Notes under the pieces: generated by a model
What the model saw: the letters and a program-made list of their open reading frames with translations, nothing else
Databases searched by the model: none
Told to the model about the DNA's origin: nothing
Made by a program: the position numbers and the translations under genes
Part shown: positions 31,322-47,148 of the stretch, in pieces
Layout: every line of letters begins with the position of its first letter
Numbering within the stretch: position 1 is the first letter of the stretch
DNA from: Bacteroidia bacterium
GTDB taxonomy: Bacteria > Bacteroidota > Bacteroidia > NS11-12g > UBA955
Assembly (NCBI GenBank): GCA_040403495.1
Contig: JBBAKM010000004.1
Span: forward strand, 23,456 to 87,455
Length of the DNA stretch: 64,000 nucleotides
Direction: 5' to 3'

Positions 31322-33871
31322 ATGGCATTTAAGAACAAAAACACATTTAGAAATGCTGCTGATGACTTTCAGCCAGAGGAGTCTGCTAAAAAAAGTCGTG
31401 TCAAAGGAAACTATTTTTCGTGGTTGAAAGACGAGAAAACCGCCAGAGTAATAGGTGCCTTTTTTGTGCTCTTTTCATTGTTTTTGTTCATGTCTTTTAT
31501 TTCTCATATTGTCAATTTATGGGGATTCGAAACCGATCAAGATTTATTGCTCTCTAATAGTTGGCAGTGGTACAAAACCAATAATCCCAAAGGTGCAGTT
31601 AACATGATGGGTTATTTGGGGGCATGGTTTAGCCACTTGTTTATTCACAAATGGTTTGGAGTTGCCTCTTTTGTGTGGCTATTAACTTTTTTTACATTGG
31701 GTACCAAAATGTTGTTCAATTGGCAATTGTATCCATTGTTAAAAACATTAAGATATTCCTTTTTCATCGTTATTTGGGTGTCAATGTTAATGGGTTTCTT
31801 GTTCTATAAACACAGCTTGTTTATGGGTGGTGGATTTGGTTATTACGGCGTGTCATGGTTGAGCTCATTGTTCGGTAAGTTAGGCGTTGTTCTGTTCTTG
31901 TTGTTGTATGCTTTTATGTTTGCAACTATTGTTTACAATTTAGATTTTAAATCAATTAAAAGAAGTAGTTTAATAGATGACAAGGAATCAAACACACCGG
32001 GTGTGCCGTTTTCTGAACATGAATTGGAAGCAGAGTCTATCAAAAATGAATTTTTAAATCAAGATTCCCCATTTGATGTAACGGCTAGTGAAATAGAAGA
32101 AGAGGATGAAGGTATAGAACTAATAACGATTAATCAAACACCTGAAATAAAAGAAGAAATAGAACTCGAGGAAATGATGAATCCTCAAGTTGTTAGTTTT
32201 GATGTAAACAATACCCCTAAACCAATTTCGAAAACTCAACCGAATTTTGAACTTAAAATAGAAGCACCGCAAGAGGAAGAATTAGTAATTGTTCAACCTG
32301 TAAGCGAACCTGTATTGGATACATCAAATTCTGTCGCTCCTATTACAGCTTCTTTTGGTGATGATTCTCAGTACGACCCACGTTTAGATTTGGCGGGTTA
32401 TCAAATGCCAACCATAGATTTATTGCAGGACTATGAAGTGGCCAAAACAGAGATAGACAGAACAGAACTTGAGCACAGTAAAAACCTAATCATTGAAACA
32501 CTCAAAAACTACAACATTGGTATTTCTGAGATTAAGGCAAACATAGGTCCTACGGTAACTTTATACGAAATAATTCCTGCACCGGGGGTTAAAATTTCGA
32601 GAATTAAAAATCTGGAAGACGATATAGCGCTCAGTTTGGCAGCTTTGGGAATTCGTATTATTGCCCCTATTCCCGGAAAAGGAACCATAGGGATAGAAGT
32701 GCCGAACAAAAAGCCCGAAATGGTCCCTATGAAATCCATGGTGGCAAGTAAAAAGTTTCAAGAGTGTGCTTATGAGTTGCCTGTAATATTAGGAAAAACA
32801 ATATCTAATGAAATTTATATAGCAGATTTAGCCAAAATGCCGCATTTGTTGTGTGCTGGAGCCACAGGTCAAGGTAAGTCTGTGGGTCTTAATACCATTA
32901 TTTGTTCGCTGTTGTACAAAAAACATCCTTCCGAATTAAAATTTGTATTAATCGATCCTAAAAAAGTTGAGTTAACACTTTATAACAAAATTGAAAGACA
33001 TTTCTTAGCCAAATTGCCTGGAGATGGAGATGCTATTATTACTGATACCAAATTGGTGACCAATACATTGAATTCATTGTGTATGGAAATGGATGAGCGT
33101 TACGATTTGTTGAAATCGGCGGGTAAGCGTAATATCATTGAGTACAATACGAAGTTCAAAGAAAGAAAATTATTACCAACAGAAGGGCATCGTTTTTTGC
33201 CATACATAGTGGTAGTGATAGACGAGGTTGCCGATTTAATGATGACCGCAGGTAGGGAAGTAGAAACGCCAATTGCTAGGTTAGCTCAGTTGGCTAGGGC
33301 AGTAGGTATTCACGTTATTTTGGCAACACAAAGGCCATCAGTAAATATTATTACAGGTACTATCAAAGCGAATTTCCCTGCGCGATTAGCTTTTAGAGTC
33401 ACCTCCAAAATAGATTCTCGTACGATTTTAGACAGCAATGGTGCCGACCAACTGATAGGAAAGGGAGATATGTTGTTTAGTACAGGCAACGATTTATTGC
33501 GATTGCAATGTCCATTTGTTGACACCCCTGAGGTGGAACGTATTACAGAATTTATAGGAAATCAAAGAGGATATAGTAGTGCCATGATATTGCCTGAGTT
33601 TAGGGGCGATGAAGACGGTGGTGCAAGAGATGATTTCGATCCTAATGACCGTGATGCTTTGTTTGAAGAAGCAGCCAGATTAATAGTTCAAACCCAACAA
33701 GGCAGTACCTCATTAATTCAAAGAAAATTGAAATTGGGCTACAACAGGGCAGGTCGTTTGATTGATCAATTAGAACAAGCAGGCATAGTGGGTCATTTTG
33801 AAGGGGCCAAAGCCAGAAAGGTATTAATACCAGACGAAGCCAGCTTAGATCAGTTTTTGGATAATATGTAG
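31322..33871 (+). CDS. ftsK: DNA translocase FtsK/SpoIIIE.
   Basis: The product has an N-terminal TM domain, a low-complexity linker, a motor domain (HLLCAGATGQGKSVGLNTII Walker A; VVVIDEVADLMM) and a C-terminal gamma winged helix. Confidence 0.95.
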   Translation: MAFKNKNTFRNAADDFQPEESAKKSRVKGNYFSWLKDEKTARVIGAFFVLFSLFLFMSFISHIVNLWGFETDQDLLLSNSWQWYKTNNPKGAVNMMGYLGAWFSHLFIHKWFGVASFVWLLTFFTLGTKMLFNWQLYPLLKTLRYSFFIVIWVSMLMGFLFYKHSLFMGGGFGYYGVSWLSSLFGKLGVVLFLLLYAFMFATIVYNLDFKSIKRSSLIDDKESNTPGVPFSEHELEAESIKNEFLNQDSPFDVTASEIEEEDEGIELITINQTPEIKEEIELEEMMNPQVVSFDVNNTPKPISKTQPNFELKIEAPQEEELVIVQPVSEPVLDTSNSVAPITASFGDDSQYDPRLDLAGYQMPTIDLLQDYEVAKTEIDRTELEHSKNLIIETLKNYNIGISEIKANIGPTVTLYEIIPAPGVKISRIKNLEDDIALSLAALGIRIIAPIPGKGTIGIEVPNKKPEMVPMKSMVASKKFQECAYELPVILGKTISNEIYIADLAKMPHLLCAGATGQGKSVGLNTIICSLLYKKHPSELKFVLIDPKKVELTLYNKIERHFLAKLPGDGDAIITDTKLVTNTLNSLCMEMDERYDLLKSAGKRNIIEYNTKFKERKLLPTEGHRFLPYIVVVIDEVADLMMTAGREVETPIARLAQLARAVGIHVILATQRPSVNIITGTIKANFPARLAFRVTSKIDSRTILDSNGADQLIGKGDMLFSTGNDLLRLQCPFVDTPEVERITEFIGNQRGYSSAMILPEFRGDEDGGARDDFDPNDRDALFEEAARLIVQTQQGSTSLIQRKLKLGYNRAGRLIDQLEQAGIVGHFEGAKARKVLIPDEASLDQFLDNM

Positions 33872-33998
33872 AACCGAATTAGTATTTAGTTCTAAATGCG
33901 ATAGAGGTTATTAAAATATAATACTTTTGGTGTTAAAATGGTGGAGCGATTAGTTTAAAATATTTACTTGTATTTATTCGTAAATACATAATAGCATT

Positions 33999-34385
33999 TT
34001 ATGCCCATTCTTGTCTAATCTTATATTTCTTAATTATATTATCTTTAGTAATTAGGGTCAAGTTTTCTGTTAGTGCTTGAGAAACAATTAGTCTATCAAA
34101 TGGGTCGCTGTGATGACTTGGTAATTTTGAAAGAGTTAGTAAATGGTCATTCGAAATTTGTATTATCTCGATTTGGTTACGTTCGGTATATTCAAACAAT
34201 TCTTCTAAAGAAATATCTAATGTCAATTTCCCAATTTGATGTTTAATTGTAATTTCCCAGAAACTTGCTATACTCAAGAAACAATGTTCATTAATGTCTT
34301 TTATTTTGGTTTTAATGCTTTCAGGAAGTTGCTTGTCGCCAGCAACAAACCATAGGAAAGTATGCGTATCAAGAAGATATGCCAT
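33999..34385 (-). CDS. vapC: PIN-domain toxin (VapC family).
   Basis: The 128-aa product has MAYLLDTHTFLWF... with conserved acidic residues. Its start overlaps the upstream antitoxin stop. Confidence 0.8.
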   Translation of the reverse strand: MAYLLDTHTFLWFVAGDKQLPESIKTKIKDINEHCFLSIASFWEITIKHQIGKLTLDISLEELFEYTERNQIEIIQISNDHLLTLSKLPSHHSDPFDRLIVSQALTENLTLITKDNIIKKYKIRQEWA

Positions 34386-34588
34386 TAAATATAGTCTTTA
34401 AAAATATCTAATGATTCATCAAAATCTTTGGCAAGCTTAATTTTGCCTTTAGCATATCCAAATTCCCTGAACTTTATTTTGTTCTTTTTCTTATTTTTCA
34501 TTTTAAGAAACGCAACAAAGTCGGCAACTTCTTTTCGAAGTGAGATTGGTAATGACTCAATTTCTATTTTAAGCGATGGGTTGGTCAT
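34385..34588 (-). CDS. vapB: VapB-type antitoxin (DUF2281-like). The start is likely the internal Met MTNPSLKIEI.
   Basis: A small protein encoded immediately upstream of vapC and overlapping it. The ORF track's longer start adds a hydrophobic leader. Confidence 0.55.
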   Translation of the reverse strand: MTNPSLKIEIESLPISLRKEVADFVAFLKMKNKKKNKIKFREFGYAKGKIKLAKDFDESLDIFKDYI

Positions 34589-34754
34589 ACCACAAATATA
34601 CAAAAATAATTTTAAAGTAAATAAGTATTTCCAAAATAATATCATCAAAAACTTTAAGATTATGCTTCCGATATTTCCTGTGTTTGCTTTGTTTCAAATA
34701 ACATATTTGGAAGAATAATTTGTATTCAATTGAAAATACATTAATTTTGAAACT

Positions 34755-34982
34755 ATGAAAACTTTGACAGTAAATATACCCGACAATTTAGATTTGACAA
34801 ATCGGGAATTGCTCATGCTAGTTGCTTCAAAATTGTACGAACAAGGTAAATTATCTCTTGGACAAGCAGCTGATCTTGTTGGATTATCTAAGCGAACTTT
34901 TGCTGAGTTATTACATCAATACAATGTTTCTGTTTTCAATTTTCCGACATCAGATTTAATAAGTGATGTAAAGAATGCGTAA
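34755..34982 (+). CDS. UPF0175-family antitoxin.
   Basis: The 75-aa product has ...LMLVASKLYEQGKLSLGQAADLVGLSKRTFAELL..., typical of UPF0175. It overlaps the downstream DUF3368 gene by 8 nt. Confidence 0.75.
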   Translation: MKTLTVNIPDNLDLTNRELLMLVASKLYEQGKLSLGQAADLVGLSKRTFAELLHQYNVSVFNFPTSDLISDVKNA

Positions 34983-35430
34983 GACCATTATCTCAGACAC
35001 AAGTTGTTTAAATGTTTTGTCAAATATTGGTGAACTTGAATTGTTAAAAAAAGTATATGATCAAATTATAACAACCTCAGACATTGAAAATGAATTTGGA
35101 GAGGAATTGCCTGATTGGATAGTTGTTGAAAATGTAAAAGACCTATCCACTCAAAAAGTATTAGAACTTCAGATAGATAAGGGAGAATCTAGTGCCATTT
35201 CATTGGCCTTGGAGTTGCCAGACAGCACTTTAATTTTAGATGATTATAAAGCTAGAAAAATTGCTCAATAATTAGGTCTTAAAATTACAGGAACAATTGG
35301 AGTAATTGTAAAAGCTAAATTAAATGGGATTATCCCTTCAATAAAACCTTACATTGAGAAAATAAAAGAAACAAATTTTAGAGTTTCTGATGAAATAGAA
35401 ATTGAAGCTTTAAAACAGGCTGATGAGTAA
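34975..35430 (+). pseudogene. DUF3368-family (PIN-like) toxin gene interrupted by an in-frame TAA at 35269-35271.
   Basis: The N-terminal 98 codons end ...DDYKARKIAQ*. The same frame continues directly as LGLKITGTIGVIVKAKLNGIIPSIKPYIEKIKETNFRVSDEIEIEALKQADE*, the conserved DUF3368 C-terminus. That makes this a single nonsense change in a full-length toxin. Confidence 0.7.
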
Positions 35431-35570
35431 GATTTAAAAATGACAGCTAAGTAGTTTGGCTGTTCAAATATAGCTTTTTTTGGATTTTCAAGTGTCTTAT
35501 AATTACACTTAACATAATCTTATAAAAGGAATAAGATTGTATTTTAAAAATTACTTATTCTTGTAGTACA

Positions 35571-35831
35571 ATGAAAATTGATAAAACGGTTTTTGGTATG
35601 TATAAAAAAGTCGAAAAACCGAATGTCTTTAAATATTGGCAAACTAAAACGGTTAAAGAAAGACTTCTTGCAGTAGCCTATTTAAATAGTGTGGCATTTA
35701 ATTACGATATCAATAATCCACCTAAAGTTGATAGAACGGTATTTTCTATTGAAAAAAGAGAGAAAAGAATAATTAATGATTTAAAATGGCAAAACAATCT
35801 TCAGCAAGACCTCTTGATATCAATGATTTAG
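35571..35831 (+). CDS. Hypothetical small protein.
   Basis: The 86-aa ORF has no recognisable domain and lies inside the TA island. Confidence 0.3.
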   Translation: MKIDKTVFGMYKKVEKPNVFKYWQTKTVKERLLAVAYLNSVAFNYDINNPPKVDRTVFSIEKREKRIINDLKWQNNLQQDLLISMI

Positions 35832-35894
35832 AAAATTTGAATTAAAATTTTTAATTAAAATTACATATTTTATTAGCTCTTTTTTAAATGTTAG

Positions 35895-35992
35895 CATCAA
35901 GTTAACCCTCCAAAAGTTAAGCTTTTTGGAGAGTTGATTATCCAAAAAGACAGATATTCGGAGAGTTGACTCTCCAAAAGTAGGGAATTTTG
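35895..35992. repeat. Cluster of three related hairpins sharing a TCCAAAAG core.
   Basis: The hairpins are CTCCAAAAgttaagctTTTTGGAG, GGAGAGttgaCTCTCC and TCCAAAAgtagggaaTTTTGGA. They lie between two convergent genes and none has a U-tract. Confidence 0.4.
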
Positions 35993-36025
35993 GATATTTG
36001 TTTTATTTTAATATTGTAACTTGTA

Positions 36026-36373
36026 TTACTTTATTTTATTGATAAGCTTTTGATTTTGATCTCTCAAGTATTTATTTTCTTCTTTCAATAGCTTAATTTC
36101 GTTTTCTTGAATCATTAATTGATGGATATATCCATAATTGTAATTAACTGAGTTTTCTGAATTATTGAAATTGTTAGTTACGTTATTGCTGAGAAGTTCA
36201 TTAAAATCGATTTCATAAATTTTAGCAAATTTAATCAACTTAGAAATATCTGGTTTAATTTTGCCAGTTTCAATTTTACTGTAATCTGATTGTTCAATTC
36301 CAAGCTCTGATGCAATTTTTTGCTGATCCCAACCTTTTTCTAGTCTTAATTTTTTTAGATTTTTGTGTATCAT
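36026..36373 (-). CDS. XRE-family helix-turn-helix transcriptional regulator with a C-terminal coiled-coil.
   Basis: The product has LKKLRLEKGWDQQKIASELGIEQSDYSKIETGK (HTH_3). It is divergent from the first lipoprotein/OMP module. Confidence 0.8.
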   Translation of the reverse strand: MIHKNLKKLRLEKGWDQQKIASELGIEQSDYSKIETGKIKPDISKLIKFAKIYEIDFNELLSNNVTNNFNNSENSVNYNYGYIHQLMIQENEIKLLKEENKYLRDQNQKLINKIK

Positions 36374-36486
36374 TATTAATATATTTGTTTTATTTTTTTA
36401 GGAAATTATGAAGACTCAATAAATTTAATTATTTTCGATTCGTTATTTTAAATATTGATTCAAACACTAATGAAAAAAACTCGCAT
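36347..36486 (+). promoter_or_regulatory. Leader/promoter block, copy 1, shared by both lipoprotein-OMP modules.
   Basis: Bases 36391-36486 (tatatttgttttatttttttaggaaattatgaagactcaataaatttaattattttcgattcgttattttaaatattgattcaaacactaatgaaaaaaactcgc) are near-identical to 39936-40034. Confidence 0.6.
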
Positions 36487-37713
36487 TTGAAAGGTAATAA
36501 AATTTTATACATTTTAATTGTTTTTCTATCAATGTCATGTTACAAAGAATACAAGATAGAAAATAAAAGTTATTATGTAATGACTGGAGGGATAGTTAAT
36601 GGCTATCCCCCTTTTTTTATCCTATATAAATGTGATTTGTTTTCTACTACAAAACTTCCATATTCTGAATTTGATATAGTAGTTTCAGATGATTTCGGGA
36701 ATGTAGATTCAATGGTTAACGGATTGTTCAATAAAATAATTGGTATACCTGGACGTTCATATTTAGTTAAATGGAAGCTTAAGTTTGATGATACATGGAA
36801 TCAGTTTAGTAAGCAAATGCCGGCTTTTAATATAGATGCTTATAGTGGGTATGTTGAAAATTCAAAGTATAAAGTAAATTCTCCAGATAATTATGAATAT
36901 TTTTTGGCTTACAAATCAAACAATTCAGATTATTTCAATTTGTTTATAGATGGGTTATTCAACCCAATTGATATAGGTAGTGCATTTTTTAAATTAGATA
37001 AATCAAACAATACACTAAACATCTGGCCACCTGCAAATATAGAGATTTCAAATTCAGATAGAAAGGGTATAGAATTTACAAATTATAATTGTTACAAACC
37101 ATTTATTTGGGAAAAAAAGTATTTTAAGTTTGGAAATAAAACAGATGAATTTTTTTTAAAAGACATTTTGTCATTATACTCTGTAAATCAAAATGATATG
37201 CAGAATATAGTGAATGGGAGTTTTAATTTTGCTTATCAAGATCAGCCGTTGTTTATAGGCGAATCGGTAAAATATGATACAAAAAGGAATAATCAATATA
37301 CTATAACTTATTTCATTACAAGTTATAAGGATTTTAATTTTGATAAAGTTGTTGACACCTCTGGTTCAGTTGATTTTGAAATAAAACTAAATAATCAACC
37401 ACTAGATTTAACTAAATATGAAATTGGAAATGTTGGATTTAACATATTGGATAATGATAATTTTAAATTTAATAATATTTACAAATTCTTCGATTCAAAT
37501 AAAACAATCGGCAAATTGTTTAATAAAGATTTTGTAGATTATGTTTTTAATAAAGAAAGTAAAAATAATCAATGTGTTGTTAAGTCAAGTTATAATATTA
37601 GAGTAGTAGTTTATTTTTATGAAAGGTCAAATCCTAATATTAGAAAAACACATTTTGAATTATTAAATTATGATAAAAGCGTTAATAAAATCCAAATAAA
37701 TTTGATTGATTGA
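36487..37713 (+). CDS. Lipoprotein of unknown function (module 1, partner A).
   Basis: The 408-aa product has a lipobox FLSMSCYKEYK and is a ~25-30% identical paralog of the 40035-41210 product, with shared motifs KWKL, NIWPP and CYKPFIW. Its stop overlaps the downstream OMP start (ATGA). Confidence 0.6.
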   Translation: MKGNKILYILIVFLSMSCYKEYKIENKSYYVMTGGIVNGYPPFFILYKCDLFSTTKLPYSEFDIVVSDDFGNVDSMVNGLFNKIIGIPGRSYLVKWKLKFDDTWNQFSKQMPAFNIDAYSGYVENSKYKVNSPDNYEYFLAYKSNNSDYFNLFIDGLFNPIDIGSAFFKLDKSNNTLNIWPPANIEISNSDRKGIEFTNYNCYKPFIWEKKYFKFGNKTDEFFLKDILSLYSVNQNDMQNIVNGSFNFAYQDQPLFIGESVKYDTKRNNQYTITYFITSYKDFNFDKVVDTSGSVDFEIKLNNQPLDLTKYEIGNVGFNILDNDNFKFNNIYKFFDSNKTIGKLFNKDFVDYVFNKESKNNQCVVKSSYNIRVVVYFYERSNPNIRKTHFELLNYDKSVNKIQINLID

Positions 37714-39866
37714 TGTTTGATGTCAAATTTATATTATTTTTTGTTTTTCTGCTGGGTTGTCAGTTATTAAAAGGGCAAAGAGATAATATAGTAGTTGTGA
37801 AGGTTGTTAGTTTTAATAGTCAAGAACCAATATTTGGAATTAAACTAAATATTGAAGATAAAGATTATCAAACAAATTCAGATGGCATTGCAAATGTTTA
37901 TCTCAAAAATAGTATTGGGTTTTTGAAAATATACAAAGGGGATAGTTTAATTAAAACCAGTCGATTGTTTGTTTATAGAGATACATCTATAACAATCGTT
38001 ATTGATGAACAGTATTTTGAAATTGAAAAATTTAAGTTAGTTGGTAATAAGAGCTTTAAAGAATTAGATAACAAAATTTCAATACCTATGAATTTGATAA
38101 AGACTTCGGTTTTGCCTTTATCAACAAATGATCCAATTCATCTTTTAAAAATGCTTCCCGGTGTTTCTACAGCTCAAGAAATGAATTCAAATATAAATGT
38201 AAGAGGCGCATCTTCATATAATACATGTATTTATCTTGATAATGTTCCTGTTCCAAATTTATCTCATAGCTTTGGATTAATTAGTTTTTATGATAATAAC
38301 ATTATAAGGCATATTGATTATTTTAACAATCAAATTTCTTCAGCTTTTGGTACAAGGGGGTCAAGTTATTTCAAGTTTTTTTTAAAAGACCCATTACTTA
38401 ATAAAAATAAAGGTGAATTTATAATTAATCCATTTTTTGTGACTGGTAACGCCAATTTAAAAATGCTAGAAAATAAATTTGGTTTATTTGTTAATTATAG
38501 AAAATCGATATTGTCTGAGCAATATAATGCATCTTTTCCGCTTTTTTCAAATTTTCAAGATGTGTTAGTGAAATCAAAATTTAAAATTAAAGAGAACTCA
38601 CATTTGTCAATATTTTATATGGATAGTTATGACAAAAGTTATAACTCATATGGTTTTGGATTAAATGTAAAAGATAGTGTTTTATCAAGGTTTAAAACAT
38701 TTTCAGTTGTGTTTAATAAAATGAATAAAAGGGGCTTTTCTCAAACAATTAGTGGGTTTATAAAATCTCAATTTCTGTCTAGAACAAACAATAACTTCCT
38801 TGATGTCACATTGAATAATAAACTAGATGAATATAATGTATCGTATTTGAATAGCAAATCCTTAAATAAGTATTTTAAATTTCTTTTTGGATTTGAAAAT
38901 CAATTTCATAAAAGTGAAAATAAAATTGATTCTTTTAATTTTAATAATCAAAAAAACAACATAAGTTCTTTGTTTTTTGATATTGAATATAAAAAAAATA
39001 ATTACAAGGTGTTTGCTAATGTTAGACCAAATTACTTTGTTTCCCTCAATGAAATATATTTTGAAGCAAGATCTGGAATATTGAGAAAATTTAATAATCT
39101 GGGATTATATACAGAGGTAAATAGGTATGTAAACTCAATTCATTCGTTATCAAATAATCTTTTTGCAATTCCTGAAGATTATAGATTTTTACCTACAAAA
39201 GTGTTTAAGCCGCAAACAACAAATGAGATACTTATTGGTTTGAAATATTCAAACCTTAGAATAAACTTCTCATCAAATTTTTACTATAGGGTTTACGATA
39301 ATAGCTATGATTACAAAAAACTTTATTTATCTCCAATTAACAAACTTTCGAATATATCAAAAGTGGATTTTAATAGTTATGGTATAGAAAATTTTGTTAG
39401 CATTAAGATAAGTAAGTCAAATTCAATGAATTTGTCATATACATATTCAAAATCAACAATGTATAATGATTCAATTAATTTAGGAATAAAATATGTTTCA
39501 AATTTTGATAGGCCTCACATTTTAAATGCATTTTATATGTTTAAATATAAAAGAATTACATTTACAACTTCTTTTATATTTAAAAGTGGTAGGCCATATA
39601 CAGCGCCATTGTATGTTTTGAATAATATCCCCTTTTATTCAAACAGGAATGAGTTTAGGTTGCCTGTTTTTCATAAACTAGACATCGGAGTTCTCTATGA
39701 ATTTAAATCAAAGGTTTCTCAAACTCTACAGTTTCACCTGTATAATGTCTATTCACGTAATAATATTTATGCTGTTGTTTTTAATTCTTCTTTTTCTAAT
39801 CCTGAATTTAAGTATTTTTCAGCTTTCCCATTTCTACCATCCTTCTCTTACAGTATTAAATTTTAG
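37710..39866 (+). CDS. Outer-membrane beta-barrel protein with an N-terminal CarbopepD_reg-like domain and a TonB-dependent-receptor plug-like domain (SusC-like, short form; module 1, partner B).
   Basis: The product has a signal peptide and the plug-like region SVLPLSTNDPIHLLKMLPGVSTAQEMNSNINVRGASSYNTCIYLDNVPV. The C-terminus ...AFPFLPSFSYSIKF ends in Phe. The last ~50 nt are identical to the 41207-43366 gene. Confidence 0.7.
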   Translation: MMFDVKFILFFVFLLGCQLLKGQRDNIVVVKVVSFNSQEPIFGIKLNIEDKDYQTNSDGIANVYLKNSIGFLKIYKGDSLIKTSRLFVYRDTSITIVIDEQYFEIEKFKLVGNKSFKELDNKISIPMNLIKTSVLPLSTNDPIHLLKMLPGVSTAQEMNSNINVRGASSYNTCIYLDNVPVPNLSHSFGLISFYDNNIIRHIDYFNNQISSAFGTRGSSYFKFFLKDPLLNKNKGEFIINPFFVTGNANLKMLENKFGLFVNYRKSILSEQYNASFPLFSNFQDVLVKSKFKIKENSHLSIFYMDSYDKSYNSYGFGLNVKDSVLSRFKTFSVVFNKMNKRGFSQTISGFIKSQFLSRTNNNFLDVTLNNKLDEYNVSYLNSKSLNKYFKFLFGFENQFHKSENKIDSFNFNNQKNNISSLFFDIEYKKNNYKVFANVRPNYFVSLNEIYFEARSGILRKFNNLGLYTEVNRYVNSIHSLSNNLFAIPEDYRFLPTKVFKPQTTNEILIGLKYSNLRINFSSNFYYRVYDNSYDYKKLYLSPINKLSNISKVDFNSYGIENFVSIKISKSNSMNLSYTYSKSTMYNDSINLGIKYVSNFDRPHILNAFYMFKYKRITFTTSFIFKSGRPYTAPLYVLNNIPFYSNRNEFRLPVFHKLDIGVLYEFKSKVSQTLQFHLYNVYSRNNIYAVVFNSSFSNPEFKYFSAFPFLPSFSYSIKF

Positions 39867-40034
39867 ATTTTTGTGTATCATTATTAAAAAATAGAATATA
39901 TTCATCAAAAATTGAATTTTTTGATGAATATATTTGTTTTATTTTTTTGGGAAATTATGAAGACTCAATAAATTTAATTATTTTCGATTCGTTATTTTAA
40001 ATATTGATTCAAACACTAATAAAAAAACTCGCCT
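39862..40034 (+). promoter_or_regulatory. Leader/promoter block, copy 2, with a palindrome-containing insertion.
   Basis: This copy matches copy 1 but inserts aaaatagaatatattcatcaaaaattgaattttttgatgaatatatt, which contains the perfect inverted repeat TTCATCAAAAAttgaaTTTTTTGATGAA. It also retains the first ~7 codons of the XRE gene in reverse complement (gtgtatcat). Confidence 0.6.
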
Positions 40035-41210
40035 ATGAAATTTAAAATCATTCTTTTTTTTATCGTTTTAACTCAAATAAGTTGTTACAAAGATTACGAC
40101 TTAATAAAGCAGGAATATTATTTTTTAAGGGGTTTGTTCGTCAATGGACAATCCCCTTCCTTTCAATTGTATTTTCAAAACACACAAGGCGATTATAAAG
40201 TAAATTATACTGACTATCAACTAGAGGTCATTAATGAAAATAATTCTGTTTTTAAAATGAATTCAAATGGTAACTTTTCTTTTTTATCTATAAAGCCTAA
40301 TTCTAAATACAAAGTGAGATGGAAATTAAATAGCGAGAAAGAATGGCACGAGCTTACCAAAGAGTCTATTAACTATGAAACAACGTTAAATGACAAATCA
40401 TTTGTTAAAGTCGAAAATGAATTGTTTGTTAATAGAGATAGAAATGATTCTTTTGTTTATTTTTTATACAATCCATATGATAGAAAGACTTTTGAAGAAC
40501 AGTTTTTAAAATCTTTTTTGATTGAATATCCCGATGCATTTCTTGAATTAAATCAAACAGACAATGCATTGATTTTATGGCCACCTTCCAATAAATATTA
40601 TTTAGATAGATTTAAAAATTCAACTAACTTTTGCTTCAAACCATTCACTTGGAAAATGTTAAGTGGGCCTGTATATAGTAATTTTCAACTTTATAGTATG
40701 TCTAAATCGGATTTTCAATTTTATTATAATTTACATAAAAATGATGTAGGAAAAAATACGCCTTTGGCGGTTGGTGAAGGCATATTGTGGGATTACAGTA
40801 AAGACAATGTAAAAGCCAAAATAGTCAATATTAACAATTATAATAATATTAAAATCTTTGATTATGTTAACAGAGATGAAAGGTTGTATGTTGATTTTTT
40901 AATAAATGGCAACTCAATAGATACATTAAGTCATAGAATAATTAGCGTTAATATGAGATTTGAAAAATCCGAAAATTCTTTTCCAGTTATGGGATGGCAA
41001 AATAAAACTGTTTATGCTGGTACTAAAGAATATTTTGCGCATCACTTCAACGAGAATTTCAATAAACCATGTGGTTATTTTAACAATATTTATAAATTGA
41101 GGTTTTTTGTATATCTTCATGATTTAAAAACAAACATAAGAACAAGTATTGAAATGCCAACATTCAACTACACAAAAGGCGAAAGTGTAGTTTTAGATAT
41201 TAAACCATGA
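40035..41210 (+). CDS. Lipoprotein of unknown function (module 2, partner A).
   Basis: The 391-aa product has a lipobox LTQISCYKDYD and is paralogous to the 36487-37713 product. Its stop overlaps the downstream OMP start (ATGA). Confidence 0.6.
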   Translation: MKFKIILFFIVLTQISCYKDYDLIKQEYYFLRGLFVNGQSPSFQLYFQNTQGDYKVNYTDYQLEVINENNSVFKMNSNGNFSFLSIKPNSKYKVRWKLNSEKEWHELTKESINYETTLNDKSFVKVENELFVNRDRNDSFVYFLYNPYDRKTFEEQFLKSFLIEYPDAFLELNQTDNALILWPPSNKYYLDRFKNSTNFCFKPFTWKMLSGPVYSNFQLYSMSKSDFQFYYNLHKNDVGKNTPLAVGEGILWDYSKDNVKAKIVNINNYNNIKIFDYVNRDERLYVDFLINGNSIDTLSHRIISVNMRFEKSENSFPVMGWQNKTVYAGTKEYFAHHFNENFNKPCGYFNNIYKLRFFVYLHDLKTNIRTSIEMPTFNYTKGESVVLDIKP

Positions 41211-43366
41211 AAAAAATATTTGTATTTTCTCTTTTATTTCTGTGTTTAGTATTAAAAAGCCAAACATTACATCAAATAAATTTTAAGTTTTTAGACCAAG
41301 CAAACAATCAACCGATTTCTAATTTACTAGTCAAATGCCAAAATACTGCAGCGTATAGTAATTCAGATGGTTTTGTTTCTGTGTTCTTACATTCAGATAC
41401 CTGTACGTTTCGTTTTTATGAATCAGATATATATTTACAAGAGTACAAATTAAAAGCATATAATGACACTTTTATAGTATTGAAAATAGAACGCATTTAT
41501 GAAATAAGTAAGTTTAAGCTAAGGGTAAATCACCAGCCCATAACTGCTAAAAATAACAGAATTTCTATAGGTCAAAATACACTTCAGTCTATTTCATTGC
41601 CACTAAGTACCAACGACCCAATTCATTTATTAAAAACATTGCCCGGGGTTAATACCAGTCAAGAAATGAATGCTAATTTAAATATTAGAGGTGGAAGTGC
41701 TTACAATACAGTCTTTTATTTAGATAATATTCCTGTGCCTAATTTAACTCATAGTTTTGGTTTATACAGTTTTTTTGATTTGAATACTATCAGACAAATT
41801 GATTATTTCAATAATAATGTAAGTAGTGAGTATGGCTCTAGGGGTTCAAGTTATATAAAATTTTATCTTAAAGACCCAATTGCTAATAAATCAACATCAG
41901 AGCTGAATATTAATCCTTTTTTTGTTAGTGGTAATGTTAATTTGAAGTTAAAAAAAGAAAAATTGGGTGTTTTTGTTAATTACAGAAAATCAATTTTCAA
42001 CACTGAATATAATGTTCTTTTCCCTCTTTTTTCGGAGTTTTCAGATTTATTGATTAAAACAAAATATAACTTTAACAAAAGGTCGTCATTAAGTTTAATA
42101 TACACCGATAATCAAGACAGGGTTACTGATTTTAATGCAACGGGAATTAACTCAAGAGATAGCTTACAATGGCAGTTTAAAGCCTTTTCATCACAATTTG
42201 ATTTAATCTCTAAAACTGGCGTAAAACATGAAGCAATTTTTTTCATTAAGAATCAAGTATTGTCAAGGCAATCTTTGAATAATCAGTTTAATTACAATAA
42301 CGAATTTAATGAAATGAACTTTAAATATTCGTTAAAGAAAAGTTTTAGCCAGAATTTTAAATCATCATTAGGCTTAGAACATCAAATTCATCAAAATAAT
42401 AATTCAATAGCTTTTAACAATAAAACCATCAATAATTTGAATGTTTTATCACTTTATACGGATAACTCATACCAATTTAAAAACTTGATTTTTAATGCTA
42501 ATTTAAGGTTGAGTAATTTTATAGAATTAAAGAAAACCTATTTGGAAAAAAGGTTAAGTGTAAATTATAAGCTCAATAAGTCGAATTTTATTGCGGAATA
42601 TAATTCTTTTGTTAATTCTACACATAGTTTGGTCAACAATGTTTTTCCCGTGCCTGATGATTTTAAGTTTTTGGCGAATAAAGATTTTTTGCCTCAGGTA
42701 ACTAATGAGTGGTTGATTGGCTATAATGTTCAACTAAAAAAATCAAATCTACAATTAAATGCTTATCATAGAAATTATCTAAATAGCTATGATTACAGAA
42801 GATTGAATATTGATAATTATGCCTCATTTAGCAACGTTTTTAAGATGAATCATATCAGCTATGGGGTTGAAGCTTTGTCAAATATAAACATTAACGAAAA
42901 GCATAGTTTTGTTTTGTCCTATACTTATTCAAAATCTACGATGCAAAATGATTCAGTCAATTTAGGTTTATTATATCCAACTAGTTACGACAGGCCACAT
43001 AATTTTAATTTATTGTATAGTTTTAAATATAAAAGATTTACGTTTACTAGTACTTTTACTTGGCAAAGTGGTAGGGTTGCTACGGTACCTTTATTTGTAG
43101 CTTACGCTAATGCTACCCCAATTTATTCTCTAAGAAATGAGTATCGTTTAAAACCTTTTCATAAAATGGATATTGGTTTTCAATACAGTTTTAGAAATAA
43201 AGGTAAAATTAAACAGTTTTTAAATGTTAATTTGTACAATGTATATTTTCGTCAAAATACTTATGCTGTTGTATGGGAAAGTAACAACAATACTAGATCT
43301 GCTGAACTAAAATATCTAACAGCTTTCCCATTTCTACCATCCTTCTCTTACAGTATTAAATTTTAG
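41207..43366 (+). CDS. Outer-membrane CarbopepD/plug/beta-barrel protein (module 2, partner B).
   Basis: The 719-aa product is ~65% identical to the module-1 protein in the plug region (ISLPLSTNDPIHLLKTLPGVNTSQEMNANLNIRGGSAYNTVFYLDNIPV). It has the identical C-terminal TAFPFLPSFSYSIKF. Confidence 0.7.
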   Translation: MKKIFVFSLLFLCLVLKSQTLHQINFKFLDQANNQPISNLLVKCQNTAAYSNSDGFVSVFLHSDTCTFRFYESDIYLQEYKLKAYNDTFIVLKIERIYEISKFKLRVNHQPITAKNNRISIGQNTLQSISLPLSTNDPIHLLKTLPGVNTSQEMNANLNIRGGSAYNTVFYLDNIPVPNLTHSFGLYSFFDLNTIRQIDYFNNNVSSEYGSRGSSYIKFYLKDPIANKSTSELNINPFFVSGNVNLKLKKEKLGVFVNYRKSIFNTEYNVLFPLFSEFSDLLIKTKYNFNKRSSLSLIYTDNQDRVTDFNATGINSRDSLQWQFKAFSSQFDLISKTGVKHEAIFFIKNQVLSRQSLNNQFNYNNEFNEMNFKYSLKKSFSQNFKSSLGLEHQIHQNNNSIAFNNKTINNLNVLSLYTDNSYQFKNLIFNANLRLSNFIELKKTYLEKRLSVNYKLNKSNFIAEYNSFVNSTHSLVNNVFPVPDDFKFLANKDFLPQVTNEWLIGYNVQLKKSNLQLNAYHRNYLNSYDYRRLNIDNYASFSNVFKMNHISYGVEALSNININEKHSFVLSYTYSKSTMQNDSVNLGLLYPTSYDRPHNFNLLYSFKYKRFTFTSTFTWQSGRVATVPLFVAYANATPIYSLRNEYRLKPFHKMDIGFQYSFRNKGKIKQFLNVNLYNVYFRQNTYAVVWESNNNTRSAELKYLTAFPFLPSFSYSIKF

Positions 43367-43399
43367 ATTTATTCATTGTAGGTAGGGGCTTTAAGTTAT

Positions 43400-43720
43400 A
43401 TGTTTAAACAAGCCAAGTTGCTAACACAAAAAATATTGCAAATGAAAAAAAATAGTATCTTTGAGTATTATTTTTTTCAAATGAAAGCTGAGCACAATGT
43501 AAATAGTCAAAAATTAGAACTTATTCAATGGCTTTCTACTATAGAAGATCAATCTACCATTGAAAAGCTGATTGAATTTAAAAATAAAGAAAATAAAGAT
43601 TGGTGGGATTCACTCTCTAAAAAAGAAGAACAATCAATAAATAAAGGAATTTTAGATGCAGAAAAAGGAAATCTAAAATCCCATTCAATTGTAAGAAACA
43701 GGTATGAAAAGTGGTTATAA
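43400..43720 (+). CDS. Putative antitoxin-like small protein (addiction-module-component-like C-terminus).
   Basis: The 106-aa product has ...DWWDSLSKKEEQSINKGILDAEKGNLKSHSIVRNRYEKWL. It sits immediately upstream of a decayed ParE/RelE-like ORF. The true start may be the internal Met MKAEHN. Confidence 0.35.
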   Translation: MFKQAKLLTQKILQMKKNSIFEYYFFQMKAEHNVNSQKLELIQWLSTIEDQSTIEKLIEFKNKENKDWWDSLSKKEEQSINKGILDAEKGNLKSHSIVRNRYEKWL

Positions 43721-43730
43721 CGTATTCTAG

Positions 43731-44002
43731 ACTGAAAATGCCCTAATAGAATTAGAAGAAACTATTAAATACTTAGAAACCAATTGGACAAATATTGAAA
43801 TCCAAAATTTATTTGAAAATTTAGATAGAACGATAACCCTACTTTCTAAAAATCCATTAATTTTCCCATTAAGTCATAGAAAAAAGGTTAGAAGAGTGGT
43901 TTTCTCTCTTTAAATACTTTGTATTACAGAGTTGTAGATGGTAGGGTAGAAATATTATCGTTTTTTTCAAATAGGCAAAACCCTGATAAAATCAACATTT
44001 AG
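43731..44002 (+). pseudogene. RelE/ParE-family toxin remnant with no start codon and a -1 frameshift near 43905.
   Basis: Frame 1 reads ENALIELEETIKYLETNWTNIEIQNLFENLDRTITLLSKNPLIFPLSHRKKVRRVVFSL*. The shifted frame reads LYYRVVDGRVEILSFFSNRQNPDKINI*. The second half matches the conserved RelE/ParE C-terminus (Y-R-V-x-D-x-V-E-I-L-x-I-x-H-x-R-Q-x-P). Confidence 0.5.
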
Positions 44003-44022
44003 TAATAGTAATAGCTTGTTAC

Positions 44023-44100
44023 TCTTTTTCTAATCCTGAATTTAGGCACTTTACAGCTTCCACATTTCTACCATCCTTCTCTTACAGTATTAAATTTTAG
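44023..44100 (+). pseudogene. Orphan 3'-terminal fragment of a third lipoprotein-partner OMP paralog.
   Basis: The sequence ctttttctaatcctgaatttaggcactttacagcttccacatttctaccatccttctcttacagtattaaattttag aligns to 39788-39866 and 43289-43366. It translates in frame to SFSNPEFRHFTASTFLPSFSYSIKF*. Confidence 0.65.
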
Positions 44101-44223
44101 ATTTAATTGTCTTTTTGTCCTGCTATTCACAGTAATAGTGTTATTTAATAGAAGTGTTCCTTTAAACAAACTCATTTTGGAACACTATTTGGATAGCTTG
44201 AATAATAAATAATAGTATTAAAT

Positions 44224-44907
44224 TTGCGCCCAATGAAAATTAAAGTCCTTTTTTCTTTTTTGATTCTCGTGTTAATGTCCTTTGTAGCTACACCACCCAA
44301 AGTGGAAAAAGACAAAGATGCCAACAAGTTATTGAAAGATATTTCTAAAAAATACAAAGCTTATACCTCTCTTAAAGCCGATTTTACAATGTTGAACGAA
44401 CCTGCCGATGGTAAAAAAAGTACCACCGAAAAGGGCTCTTTGTGGTCGAAAGGGAATAACTTTAAACTGAATTTTGGAGGTCAACAGATTTTTTGTAACG
44501 GTAAGTTTATATGGACTTATACCGCCGAAACCAATGAGTGTGTTAAGGATAATTACAATCCCAATAGCTCAAAAGGAATTAACCCTACCAAATTATTTAC
44601 TATTTGGGAAAAAGGGTTTTTATACATCAGTGAAGGAACATACAAAAAAGGCACTTCTATTATTTCTAAAATAAAACTAACCCCAACCGACAAATCTGTT
44701 CCTTATTTCTTAATGAACTTAGAGGTTGACAATACCCTTAAAACATTGCAAAGTATGAAAGTATCATACAAAGCAGGCAACAAACAAACCTACACTATCA
44801 CTCAACAAAAAGCCAATGAGGCTATTTTGGACAAGGAGTTTGTGTTTGATGCAAGCAAATACAGCGGTGTAGAAATCATCGATTTAACCAGTAAGTCAAA
44901 AAAATAA
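44224..44907 (+). CDS. lolA: LolA-like outer-membrane lipoprotein carrier protein. The start is probably the Met at 44233 (MKIKVLF).
   Basis: The product has a signal peptide and ...LKADFTMLNEPADGKKSTTEKGSLWSKGNNFKLNFGGQQIFCNGKFIWTY..., typical of LolA/LppX-fold proteins. lolA normally neighbours ftsK. Confidence 0.75.
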   Translation: MRPMKIKVLFSFLILVLMSFVATPPKVEKDKDANKLLKDISKKYKAYTSLKADFTMLNEPADGKKSTTEKGSLWSKGNNFKLNFGGQQIFCNGKFIWTYTAETNECVKDNYNPNSSKGINPTKLFTIWEKGFLYISEGTYKKGTSIISKIKLTPTDKSVPYFLMNLEVDNTLKTLQSMKVSYKAGNKQTYTITQQKANEAILDKEFVFDASKYSGVEIIDLTSKSKK

Positions 44908-45989: not shown

Positions 45990-46277
45990 ATAAAGTGTTA
46001 TTTCTTCTTCTTCTTTGTATATTTTACACCCTAGTAAACTCTATTAATGTGGAAAATAGATAGGTGTATTTATAGGCTGACTTATCGCTATTTTATTACG
46101 AGATAATTCAGTTATATGGTTCTTAACATATTAGGAAAATGTTACCTTGTGTTTTAATGTTAAATTTACTTAATGTGCTATAGGGTAATTTACATGTCAA
46201 AGATTTAGTGTTTTAGTCATATAAATGGTAGCAAATTTTTTATTATCTTTGTAAAATAGAAGTTTTTAAATATAGTT

Positions 46278-46451
46278 ATGGAAGAGAAGCAAATAAAACT
46301 ACTTAAAGCATTAGCTAAAAAGATTGAGTCCAAAAAGAGAGAAAGGGCTGTTGTTATGTTTTCTCTTAAATCTGCTAAAATTCTCACCAAGGAGGAAAAT
46401 TTTACAGGGCATTTGAAAAATCTTGATAAAGTCTTTGCCACTGCCGAATAA
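46278..46451 (+). CDS. Small ORF of 57 aa, below the ORF-track cutoff, translationally coupled to the next gene.
   Basis: The ORF reads MEEKQIKLLKALAKKIESKKRERAVVMFSLKSAKILTKEENFTGHLKNLDKVFATAE. Its stop overlaps the downstream ATG (TAATG), and a purine-rich stretch lies upstream. Confidence 0.35.
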   Translation: MEEKQIKLLKALAKKIESKKRERAVVMFSLKSAKILTKEENFTGHLKNLDKVFATAE

Positions 46452-47086
46452 TGTATCGTAATCGTCCAAATTTATCAATTGGATTTCACGGATGTGACCT
46501 TGCTGTAATGCAAGAATTAGTATCTAATCCAGACAAAGTGAAAAAGAGTCAAGAAAAATTTGATTGGCTGGGTAATGGGTTTTATGTTTGGGAAAATAAT
46601 CAAGCAAGAGCTTTGAAATGGGCGGTTGATAAAAAGCAAAGAGGAGGACAACTGAAATATCCAGCTGTCGTAGGTGTTGTATATCAACTTGATTATTGTT
46701 TAGATTTAACAGATTCAGAATCGATTGAATTACTTCCTACCTACTACAAATTGATGAAGGATGATTTATCCATAATGGGCAAGAATATTCCAGAAAATAG
46801 AAATGTAAATGGAGATAAACATCATGACCTTGTTATTAGGGAATTAGATTGCGCTGTTATAGAATATATGCATCAAAAGATTGATGAGGAAATTAAATCT
46901 GATTTAGAAACAAAAGGGTATTCTGAATATAGGCATTTTGATACAGTAAGGGGGATATTTACCGAAGGAGGTCCAATTTTTGATGGTGCAGGAATTCAAT
47001 CTAAAAACCACATTCAAGTTTGTATTAGGAACTTAAATTGTATCAAAGGCTTCTTTATGCCAAGAAAAGAAAGTAAATTTCCTTAA
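46451..47086 (+). CDS. Hypothetical protein with a conserved GFY-type motif (possibly DUF3990-like).
   Basis: The 211-aa product carries ...IGFHGCDLAV...GNGFYVWENNQARALKWA.... It lies in an AT-rich gap after trhO. The family assignment is from memory only. Confidence 0.4.
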   Translation: MYRNRPNLSIGFHGCDLAVMQELVSNPDKVKKSQEKFDWLGNGFYVWENNQARALKWAVDKKQRGGQLKYPAVVGVVYQLDYCLDLTDSESIELLPTYYKLMKDDLSIMGKNIPENRNVNGDKHHDLVIRELDCAVIEYMHQKIDEEIKSDLETKGYSEYRHFDTVRGIFTEGGPIFDGAGIQSKNHIQVCIRNLNCIKGFFMPRKESKFP

Positions 47087-47148
47087 AAGCAATTTGCTTT
47101 TAAATTTGAATTTCTAACAATTGTAAAATTCCCTAAAAAAACAATAAT

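Follow-up and report, generated by a model that had tools for sequence, protein, structure and literature searches.

We analyzed a 64-kb stretch of contig JBBAKM010000004.1 from a Bacteroidia bacterium (assembly GCA_040403495.1), here called the window (64,000 nucleotides [nt]; coordinates refer to it unless another locus is named), in which the essential genes ftsK and lolA are separated by a spacer of approximately 10.3 kb (ftsK end, 33871; lolA start, 44224/44233). The explanation that best accounts for the combined data, to which we assign a probability of roughly 0.7, is that this spacer is a recombination hotspot occupied by a flexible genomic island, with outer membrane transporters and their partner lipoproteins as its cargo. 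We are highly confident of the first part of this explanation, i.e., a flexible genomic island that changes by recombination and has no dedicated mobility enzyme. Flexible genomic islands and transporter-plus-lipoprotein cassettes are both known categories, while the lipoprotein families that we call lipoB and lipoA and the four-gene cassette that contains them are undescribed so far. The locus would provide a small natural example of a streamlined freshwater bacterium varying its outer surface without mobile-element machinery, with one spacer in seven states and with donors and crossover points that can be traced to 9 to 10 nt.

An empty or variably filled spacer between ftsK and lolA

The original prediction, made from the window alone, held that about 10.3 kb of accessory DNA had been inserted between genes that are normally adjacent, and it proposed aligning the same interval in related genomes, where an empty site would support insertion. 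A LolA scan with one genome per species yielded 28 loci, all from metagenome-assembled genomes (MAGs) of freshwater or environmental Bacteroidota, and in 26 of them ftsK is directly followed by lolA with a gap of 25 to 110 nt. The closest relative (L001), whose flanks are 96 to 98% identical to the window at the nt level, has 64 nt in place of the 10.3 kb, and a second relative (L002) has 25 nt; the site is also empty in 24 further, more distant relatives, including lineages in which FtsK is only 51 to 58% identical. Locus L003 carries a 5.3-kb filling that differs from that of the window. The titles of some MAG records appear to be mislabeled: L001 is filed as "Chitinophaga pinensis" despite belonging to a freshwater lineage of ~34% GC, and L020 is titled Sphingomonadales, yet its ftsK-lolA adjacency is the same as in the other 27 loci.

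The interval is also unlike the flanking core in composition, as had been claimed, with a GC content of 26.4% in the island (33872-44175) compared to 33.9% in the rest of the window, and with GC at third codon positions of 19 to 25% (0.186 to 0.248) in island genes compared to 30 to 37% in the flanking sortilin, ftsK, lolA, and rhodanese genes. The left core flank is ftsK (31322-33871, forward strand), evident by matches to the Pfam FtsK_4TM, alpha, motor, and gamma domains (motor, E = 1.9e-57), and the right core flank is lolA with its upstream region (44176-44907, forward strand), whose LolA open reading frame (ORF) spans 44224-44907 (E = 1.3e-08). Translation of lolA probably begins with the ATG at 44233, as other annotations give a 224-amino-acid (aa) product. 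Decayed genes and relics within the interval attest to a long history of the locus and could be taken to mean that those relatives in which ftsK lies next to lolA have lost an ancestral interval by deletion. This alternative is hardly credible, given the empty state of 26 of 28 loci, including the lineages with the most divergent FtsK, the deviant composition of the interval, and a cargo that is younger than the flanks, as described below.

Further contigs of the same genus were found through look-ups of lipoprotein homologues, and in each of them the lipoprotein family lies in the ftsK-lolA spacer. Seven configurations of the site are known, the window included, with sister genomes holding five other fillings plus the empty state. 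The cassettes named here consist of a lipoprotein gene and a barrel gene of different types. The site is empty in L001 and L002. It contains hairpins, an AAA_14/DUF4143 ATPase gene, and a type 2 cassette in L003; hairpins, the ATPase gene, and a cassette with a type 3 lipoprotein in L029; a PIN/DUF2281 pair, the ATPase gene, and a type 2 cassette in L035 to L037; a UPF0175/DUF3368 pair, an XRE regulator gene, a second lipoprotein gene (lipoA), and a type 1 cassette in L033 and L034; and DUF2281, an orphan ORF (orf86), hairpins, the XRE gene, a type 2 cassette, an intact ParDE pair, and a gene relic in L038 and L039. The two-cassette version is found in the window only. Both breakpoints are common to all configurations, the left one falling after GATAATATGTA, inside the ftsK stop codon (past its first two bases), and the right one at TTTGGAACACTATTTGG, where the alleles converge ~50 nt upstream of lolA; homology among all alleles picks up again at TTTGGAACAC, in the conserved lolA upstream region (44176 onward). 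The AAA_14/DUF4143 ATPase of the sister alleles (L003:4962-6161; also L029 and L035 to L037) matches the PADLOC phage defense candidate PDC-S01 (E = 1.5e-159), indicating that the spacer collects defense-type genes as well.

The original prediction had read the interval as bearing the signature of an integrated or mobile-derived island. A classical mobile element, be it an integrative island, a remnant of a prophage or of an integrative and conjugative element, or a transposon, that had integrated site-specifically downstream of ftsK with toxin-antitoxin (TA) modules as stabilizers would account for the low GC content, the TA modules at both ends, the presence/absence polymorphism, and the cassettes at other chromosomal sites in other lineages. 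We nonetheless consider such an element improbable. No integrase, transposase, relaxase, or phage structural gene was detected in any of the seven configurations with Pfam, NCBIfam, and PHROGs; a tRNA scan of the entire 64-kb window found none, and an Rfam scan of 33500-44500 at E ≤ 1 gave no match. The boundaries, in which the prediction had suggested looking for direct repeats or att-like sequences, have neither a direct nor an inverted repeat by repeat search and junction alignment. In addition, four different left-end sequences abut one ftsK stop codon, and segments of the island differ in ancestry; together with the common breakpoints and the younger age of these segments, this speaks against the mobile-derived signature. 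The motif TTTTGG, which lies near both ends, was considered as an att-type target duplication and dropped, as it is too short and other alleles lack it. As a caution for annotation, variable loci free of integrase such as this one should not be labeled "integrated elements," and tandem pairs such as the one described below should not be labeled "duplications."

In the flexible-island explanation that we prefer, DNA between the two essential genes would be gained, lost, and swapped as the conserved flanks and the conserved ends of the cassettes undergo homologous recombination, with additional crossovers where very short stretches are shared. Flexible islands of a replacement and an additive type have been defined, and in aquatic bacteria envelope-related cassettes are swapped by recombination (PMC6060240). 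The spacer resembles the flexible genomic islands known from aquatic bacteria (Rodriguez-Valera and López-Pérez, per PMC6060240) in that a single site is used in all strains, with differing cassettes on near-identical cores, and in that its cargo is envelope related, with cassettes differing in count and kind and with evidence of exchange by recombination. It differs from them in that the flanking tRNA, integrase, and insertion sequences of typical additive islands are absent, in that the locus is far smaller than replacement islands of the O-antigen type and includes empty alleles, and in that it combines allelic replacement of lipoB and barrel with added TA modules and a second cassette.

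Mosaic ancestry of the two cassettes

The middle of the island is occupied by two modules (36487-39866 and 40035-43366), each composed of a lipoprotein gene and a Plug-domain barrel gene, which had been taken for tandem copies of one cargo. This claim did not hold: between types 1 and 2 the lipoB proteins are only 26 to 28% identical in amino acid sequence and the barrels 47%, and each type stands alone in sister genomes, with the module 1 type present by itself in L033 (98% nt identity) and the module 2 type by itself in L038 (99%). A recent tandem duplication was ruled out because the coding regions share only 26 to 47% aa identity. The two modules are deeply diverged alleles that, from their sequences, appear to have been joined via shared stretches of 9 to 10 nt, leaving behind a stub of an XRE gene.

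Different parts of the window have different closest relatives. Compared to L033, nt identity is 85.8% in the left core flank and 93.1% in the right, whereas it reaches 97.6 to 98.1% in module 1 (97.6% in type 1 lipoB) and 97.8% in the UPF0175/DUF3368 segment (34700-35430, with 86 to 93% in its flanks); the XRE gene between these two patches is 80.5% identical. Compared to L038, on the other hand, the XRE gene (100%), module 2, and ParDE are 99 to 100% identical. Synonymous divergence (dS) gives the same picture, with a dS of 0.072 for the type 1 barrel versus L033 compared to 0.21 to 0.63 for flanking genes, and a dS of 0.22 to 0.32 for the type 2 barrels and type 2 lipoB of L003 and L035 versus the window compared to 0.67 to 0.98 for the flanks. 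The exception to this young cargo is the swapped lipoB of L029, with a dS of 0.745 versus the window. Between L003 and L029, the surroundings have a dS of 0.07 to 0.14 and lipoB a dS of 0.67 (69% aa identity), which points to replacement of the lipoprotein gene alone. The L029 allele (L029:10001-11176, P0003) is near-identical to type 2 over its first ~100 residues and divergent thereafter, indicating that recombination also took place inside the lipoprotein gene. Altogether, the phylogeny of the cargo is decoupled from that of the core, and the segments of the island are mosaic and mostly younger than its flanks. The ratio of nonsynonymous to synonymous divergence (dN/dS) was 0.10 to 0.19 for the barrels (0.19 for L029 versus L035) and 0.13 to 0.31 for lipoB (0.25 to 0.31 for type 2 lipoB versus other lineages), compared to 0.02 to 0.05 for the flanks; the cargo genes are under purifying selection, yet they evolve faster than the core.

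The junctions of the type 1 cassette could be placed closely. On the left, the L038-type control region ends AAAAAAACTCGC, and in the donor (L033/L040 type) the last lipoA codons, just before the lipoB start, read GTAAAACTCGC; since the window switches from the L038-type control region to the donor at this point, lipoA is missing from it. The last ~45 nt of the window's type 1 barrel gene are L038-like and not L033-like, i.e., the donor tract ends inside the conserved 3' end of the barrel gene. At the right junction (39861-39923, which contains repeats D11 and I8), a fusion joins the barrel stop (…AAATTTTAGATTT) to XRE codons 1 to 8 read backwards (TTTTAGATTTTTGTGTATCAT), with the stop and the stub of the first XRE codons overlapping through TTTTAGATTT. 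The XRE stub is followed by a palindrome with 26-nt arms, which is found neither in L038 nor in the first copy of the control region (copy a), and then by the second control region.

We propose that the version in the window is a composite built on an L038-like backbone, which would have contributed PIN/DUF2281, orf86, the hairpins, the XRE gene, the type 2 cassette, ParDE, and what remains of an older type 1 barrel gene. Two patches would have come from an L033-like donor, namely, the UPF0175/DUF3368 pair and the type 1 lipoB-transporter cassette. For the cassette patch, the left crossover would have occurred in AAAACTCGC and the right crossover in the ~45 conserved nt with which the barrel gene ends, the barrel stop being joined to the XRE 5' stub through the shared stretch given above. 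The 104-nt control region is doubled around the patch, and a structure of just this kind would be expected from a single crossover between the resident type 2 cassette and a circularized or misaligned type 1 cassette.

An earlier layer of exchange is seen next to lolA, where 82 nt (44023-44104, forward strand) form an orphan 3' end of a type 1 barrel gene that is 93% identical to 39789-39870; the L038 copy of this fragment is 97.6% identical to the same segment. In L033, a complete type 1 barrel gene leads straight into the sequence found downstream of the fragment and then into lolA. The fragment is a relic of an older type 1 cassette that adjoined lolA, and its comparison with the complete gene in L033 indicates that the site has been overwritten repeatedly.

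Both parental types occur in metagenomes, most relatives are MAGs, and two scans of Joint Genome Institute (JGI) metagenome contigs returned 0 matches to the tandem junction, all of which would fit a tandem arrangement produced as an assembly chimera of coexisting L033-like and L038-like strains. We hold a chimera to be very improbable, because a junction overlap of only 10 nt would not suffice for joining in a k-mer graph and because the next 55 nt (XRE stub and palindrome) are absent from L038 and ~87% like L033, so that they could not have been stitched from those two. Moreover, a 100%-identical barrel protein is encoded on a 200,789-bp NCBI contig.

Cargo proteins and their proposed regulation and function

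The cargo, which had been left without a function, can be narrowed to a TonB-dependent transporter with an accessory lipoprotein of a new family. Module 1 encodes lipoB type 1 (36487-37713, forward strand), a 408-aa lipoprotein with a signal peptide that ends in a conserved SC and with several predicted β-sandwich domains, and the TonB-dependent transporter-like barrel type 1 (37710-39866, forward strand; 718 aa; PF07715, 26.6 bits against a cutoff of 23.9). Module 2 encodes lipoB type 2 (40035-41210, forward strand; 391 aa), whose gene is 99.3% identical to that of L038, and barrel type 2 (41207-43366, forward strand; 719 aa; PF07715, 34.9 bits against 23.9, E = 2.4e-08). The lipoB stop overlaps the barrel start by 4 nt on the same strand, and this pairing is repeated at four unrelated loci.

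By the Plug test, the cargo barrels are classified as Plug-domain TonB-dependent transporters. Barrel type 1 is composed of an N-terminal β-sandwich region, the Plug, and a putative 22-strand barrel of ~480 aa (ending in a typical C-terminal signal, ...SYSIKF) for which no Pfam barrel domain was matched, the Plug being the only Pfam match; a profile of the barrel family matched the plugs of BtuB and Cir (E = 3e-05) and the barrel region of PhuR (E = 3.3e-05). A single barrel sequence found no match in the PDB, nor did the barrels match PHROGs or PADLOC. Conservation between types 1 and 2 varies along the protein, from 62 to 68% in the plug to 22 to 35% in the N-terminal domain and 32 to 55% in the barrel, and the last 51 nt of the two genes are 100% identical. 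About a dozen relatives of the barrels are found at 32 to 47% identity, followed by ordinary transporters with CarbopepD_reg_2 and Plug domains at 22 to 25%, one of which, among the nearest outgroups, is paired with a downstream DUF4249 lipoprotein.

The lipoB proteins match no described family, as no match was found in Pfam, NCBIfam, PHROGs, PADLOC, or, by sequence and with the lipoB profile, the PDB. The family is small, comprising 22 clusters in an exhaustive scan of 1.84 billion representatives, and its profile matched five clusters in an index of 5.8 billion proteins; the window's exact lipoB and LolA sequences were absent from the protein collection searched. A structure model from 21 sequences (predicted local distance difference test [pLDDT] score, 78; predicted template modeling score, 0.73) depicts a string of β-sandwich domains, replacing an earlier, unusable model from 7 sequences (pLDDT, 49), and a fold search with lipoB gave single-domain matches only. 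None of the 21 family members matched PF14054 (DUF4249) at E ≤ 1, and hhalign of the lipoB profile with a DUF4249 protein gave a probability of 0.1%, although this comparison used a single-sequence template and is of low power; hhalign with another transporter-adjacent lipoprotein indicated no relation. The residues that follow the lipid-modified Cys (YKEYK and YKDYD) bear only a partial resemblance to the acidic export signal.

The pair belongs to a rare cassette of XRE, lipoA, lipoB, and transporter genes that, from its gene content, behaves as a unit and is found at unrelated sites in other lineages. The full set, with a divergent HTH_3 regulator, lipoA, lipoB, and the barrel gene, lies between sodA and mrp in L043; in L045, lipoA, lipoB, and the barrel gene lie beside a mur/ftsW cluster, with an unclassified divergent ORF of 92 aa in the position of the regulator; and in L041, a 54%-identical XRE gene, a 105-aa lipoA remnant, lipoB, and the barrel gene are bordered by a CDP-alcohol phosphatidyltransferase gene on one side and the cox operon on the other. 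At these other sites, the cassettes are 3 to 6 GC points below their flanks. The lipoA product is a Cys-rich lipoprotein of ~440 aa that is represented by 9 clusters among 5.8 billion proteins and is unannotated, with no match in Pfam, PHROGs, or PADLOC. Two tiny, unannotated lipoprotein families, lipoB and lipoA, thus always keep company with a TonB-dependent transporter of divergent sequence and with a regulator of the XRE type (unclassified in L045).

In the window, the regulator is an XRE-family helix-turn-helix protein (36026-36373, reverse strand; HTH_19/HTH_3) with a C-terminal coiled-coil-like tail. Its gene is oriented divergently to the cargo operon and is among the conserved members of the cassette. 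The intergenic control region is present as copy a (36374-36486, forward strand) and copy b (39924-40034, forward strand), and the 104 nt upstream of each module (36375-36478 and 39924-40027) are 97% identical between the two. As the same control region was kept by both operons, the single XRE protein probably governs both as a repressor. Copy a may hold a Bacteroidota-type -7 box, TATATTTG, at 36382-36389. A scan for sigma-70 promoters returned 81 sites where 73 were expected, with a consensus that is not that of Bacteroidota. In cassettes that lack lipoA, the control region starts ATGAAGACTCAATAA… and ends …AAACTCGC, resembling the first and last lipoA codons of L033 (L033:8650-9966); the region therefore appears to be a fusion of decayed 5' and 3' lipoA remnants, lipoA having apparently been lost through internal deletion. 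The palindrome that separates the XRE stub from the second control region (39886-39943; 26-nt arms, 85% complementary) also adjoins the full XRE gene in L033 and is precisely absent (41 nt) from copy a of the window and from L038. We regard this palindrome as a candidate operator, and if it acts as one, the resident XRE gene has lost it beside its own coding sequence.

Non-SusD lipoproteins that adjoin non-SusC transporters act as lids in Bacteroides, and several are genetically required (bioRxiv 10.1101/2023.03.17.533168). By analogy, we slightly favor a function in which lipoB would sit at the barrel's outer face and form a surface lid that captures ligand, the XRE protein would repress the pair, and TonB would energize import of the ligand; the two cassettes would probably differ in ligand or surface specificity. 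Compared to the lid systems described (BtuB/BtuG, XusA/XusB, HmuR/HmuY, DUF4249, DUF4876, and DUF4625; Price, Deutschbauer & Arkin, bioRxiv 10.1101/2023.03.17.533168), lipoB is unrelated in sequence, its gene lies upstream of the transporter gene, as does hmuY, and not downstream, and the full cassette adds lipoA and a divergent XRE gene. The cargo also resembles SusC/SusD (RagA/RagB) in combining a Bacteroidota outer membrane barrel that has an N-terminal β-sandwich extension with a partner lipoprotein, often strain variable. It differs in that no SusC (TIGR04056-type) or SusD model of Pfam or NCBIfam was matched by the cargo proteins, the barrel falls short of theirs by ~300 aa, the two genes come in the opposite order, and the island encodes neither glycoside hydrolases nor hybrid two-component or extracytoplasmic function regulators. 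The families lipoB and lipoA are candidates for a further family of lids and could serve as an entry point to a substrate or phage receptor system.

A related proposal is that the cassettes are surface structures varied against phages, bacteriocins, and grazers, so that the spacer would be a receptor diversification site under negative frequency-dependent selection, with protein function secondary. Such a role is consistent with the extreme allelic differences set against a conserved plug, with the exchange of lipoB alone between near-identical islands, with empty alleles, which make the module dispensable, with neighbors of the defense type (TA pairs and, in sister alleles, the PDC-S01 ATPase), and with dN/dS values 5 to 15 times those of the flanks. 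Overall, however, dN/dS stays below 0.31, i.e., purifying selection dominates, and the proposal is compatible with transporter function, complementary to it rather than exclusive. As an account in its own right, we deem it unlikely. A broader version is doubtful too and is offered tentatively: the cassette might be an unrecognized, horizontally traded outer membrane specificity module of freshwater Bacteroidota, with its conserved ends, the control region at one end and the final ~50 nt of the barrel gene at the other, as recombination handles, with receptor and lid alleles shuffled, stacked, or dropped under pressure from phages or bacteriocins, and with the ftsK-lolA spacer as its dedicated docking site in this genus.

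Several points weigh against the combined explanation of a recombination hotspot with transporter and lipoprotein cargo. The two-module state is seen only in the window, with its junction unmatched in the JGI contigs, so a single genome underlies the order of events reconstructed here. That the flanks recombine is deduced from the identical breakpoints and the dS contrasts. No clear TonB box is evident, and only a weak V-x-V-like stretch (FEIEKFKLVG in one type and YEISKFKLRV in the other) is located ~20 aa before the plug. Finally, lipoB has no sequence or whole-fold similarity to known lid lipoproteins, and its role as a lid is argued from gene adjacency and analogy.

Toxin-antitoxin modules and other features

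All of the contents listed in the original prediction are present, i.e., a VapBC pair, UPF0175 with a broken DUF3368, a small ORF, hairpins, the XRE gene, the two modules, a broken ParE, and the 3' fragment, and its description of mixed intact and decayed addiction modules is accurate, with PIN/DUF2281 intact and the DUF3368 and ParE toxins broken. At the left end, an intact VapC-like PIN-domain toxin of 128 aa (33999-34385, reverse strand; PF01850, E = 7.3e-16) is preceded by its intact DUF2281 antitoxin of 67 aa (34385-34588, reverse strand; PF10047, E = 2.1e-16), whose stop overlaps the toxin start in the layout of a type II TA module; the toxin gene is 92% identical at the nt level in L035, where it is annotated as a shorter product of 92 aa. 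The adjacent pair is composed of a UPF0175 antitoxin-like protein of 75 aa (34755-34982, forward strand; PF03683, E = 2.5e-18) and a DUF3368 toxin-like gene (34975-35430, forward strand) that is broken by a TAA at 35269-35271. The latter matches PF11848 (E = 1.5e-14) only with the TAA read through, and its L033 homologue has CAA at 35269.

Toward the right end, a ParD/RelB-like antitoxin gene (43400-43720, forward strand) gave a weak match to NCBIfam RelB_ParD (E = 0.031) and overlaps the start of a ParE toxin pseudogene (43704-44002, forward strand) in which TGG has become TAG at 43729 and 1 nt has been deleted at 43901. The ParD-like protein likely starts at M15, in agreement with a 92-aa homologue in L038. 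Once repaired, ParE matches PF05016 (27.7 bits against a cutoff of 23), and an intact ParE of 99 aa is found in L038 within DNA 99% identical to the window; with a ParE domain and an overlapping upstream antitoxin, the arrangement is that of ParDE, albeit with a weak antitoxin match. These three modules resemble type II TA modules (VapBC-like PIN/DUF2281, UPF0175/DUF3368, and ParDE) in their overlapping pairs of small ORFs, expected domains, and clustering in accessory DNA, and they differ in that two of the three toxins in the island are inactivated while the antitoxins are intact and in that none is linked to a recognizable mobile element. We suggest that TA pairs pile up in the island and decay toxin first.

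Between the left TA modules and the XRE gene lies orf86 (35571-35831, forward strand), an orphan ORF of 86 aa with no match in Pfam, NCBIfam, PHROG, or PADLOC; it is conserved at 95% in L038, and L003 and L029 keep only its tail. It is followed by three palindromic units with 32-nt spacing (35900-36003; repeat family D6; CTCCAAAAG…CTTTTTGGAG), which have a fold z-score of -2.4 and two terminator-like matches and occur once in the window, i.e., they are not a dispersed repeat. The cluster may act as paired convergent terminators of orf86 and the XRE gene; it is 82 to 86% conserved in L003, L029, and L035, alleles without the adjacent XRE gene, and is thus conserved independently of its neighbors.

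Upstream of ftsK, a gene at 28311-31217 encodes a 968-aa protein that has Sortilin/BNR repeats and, at its C terminus, a type IX secretion sorting domain, which identifies the organism as a member of the Bacteroidota; the gene is conserved and syntenic across all close relatives. Downstream of the island, a second small variable spot (45990-47113) lies between the rhodanese-like gene and TspO and contains ORFs of 57 and 211 aa that have no family match. L001 has nothing at this spot, L029 shares the content of the window, and L033, L035, and L038 have a KilA-N gene there instead.

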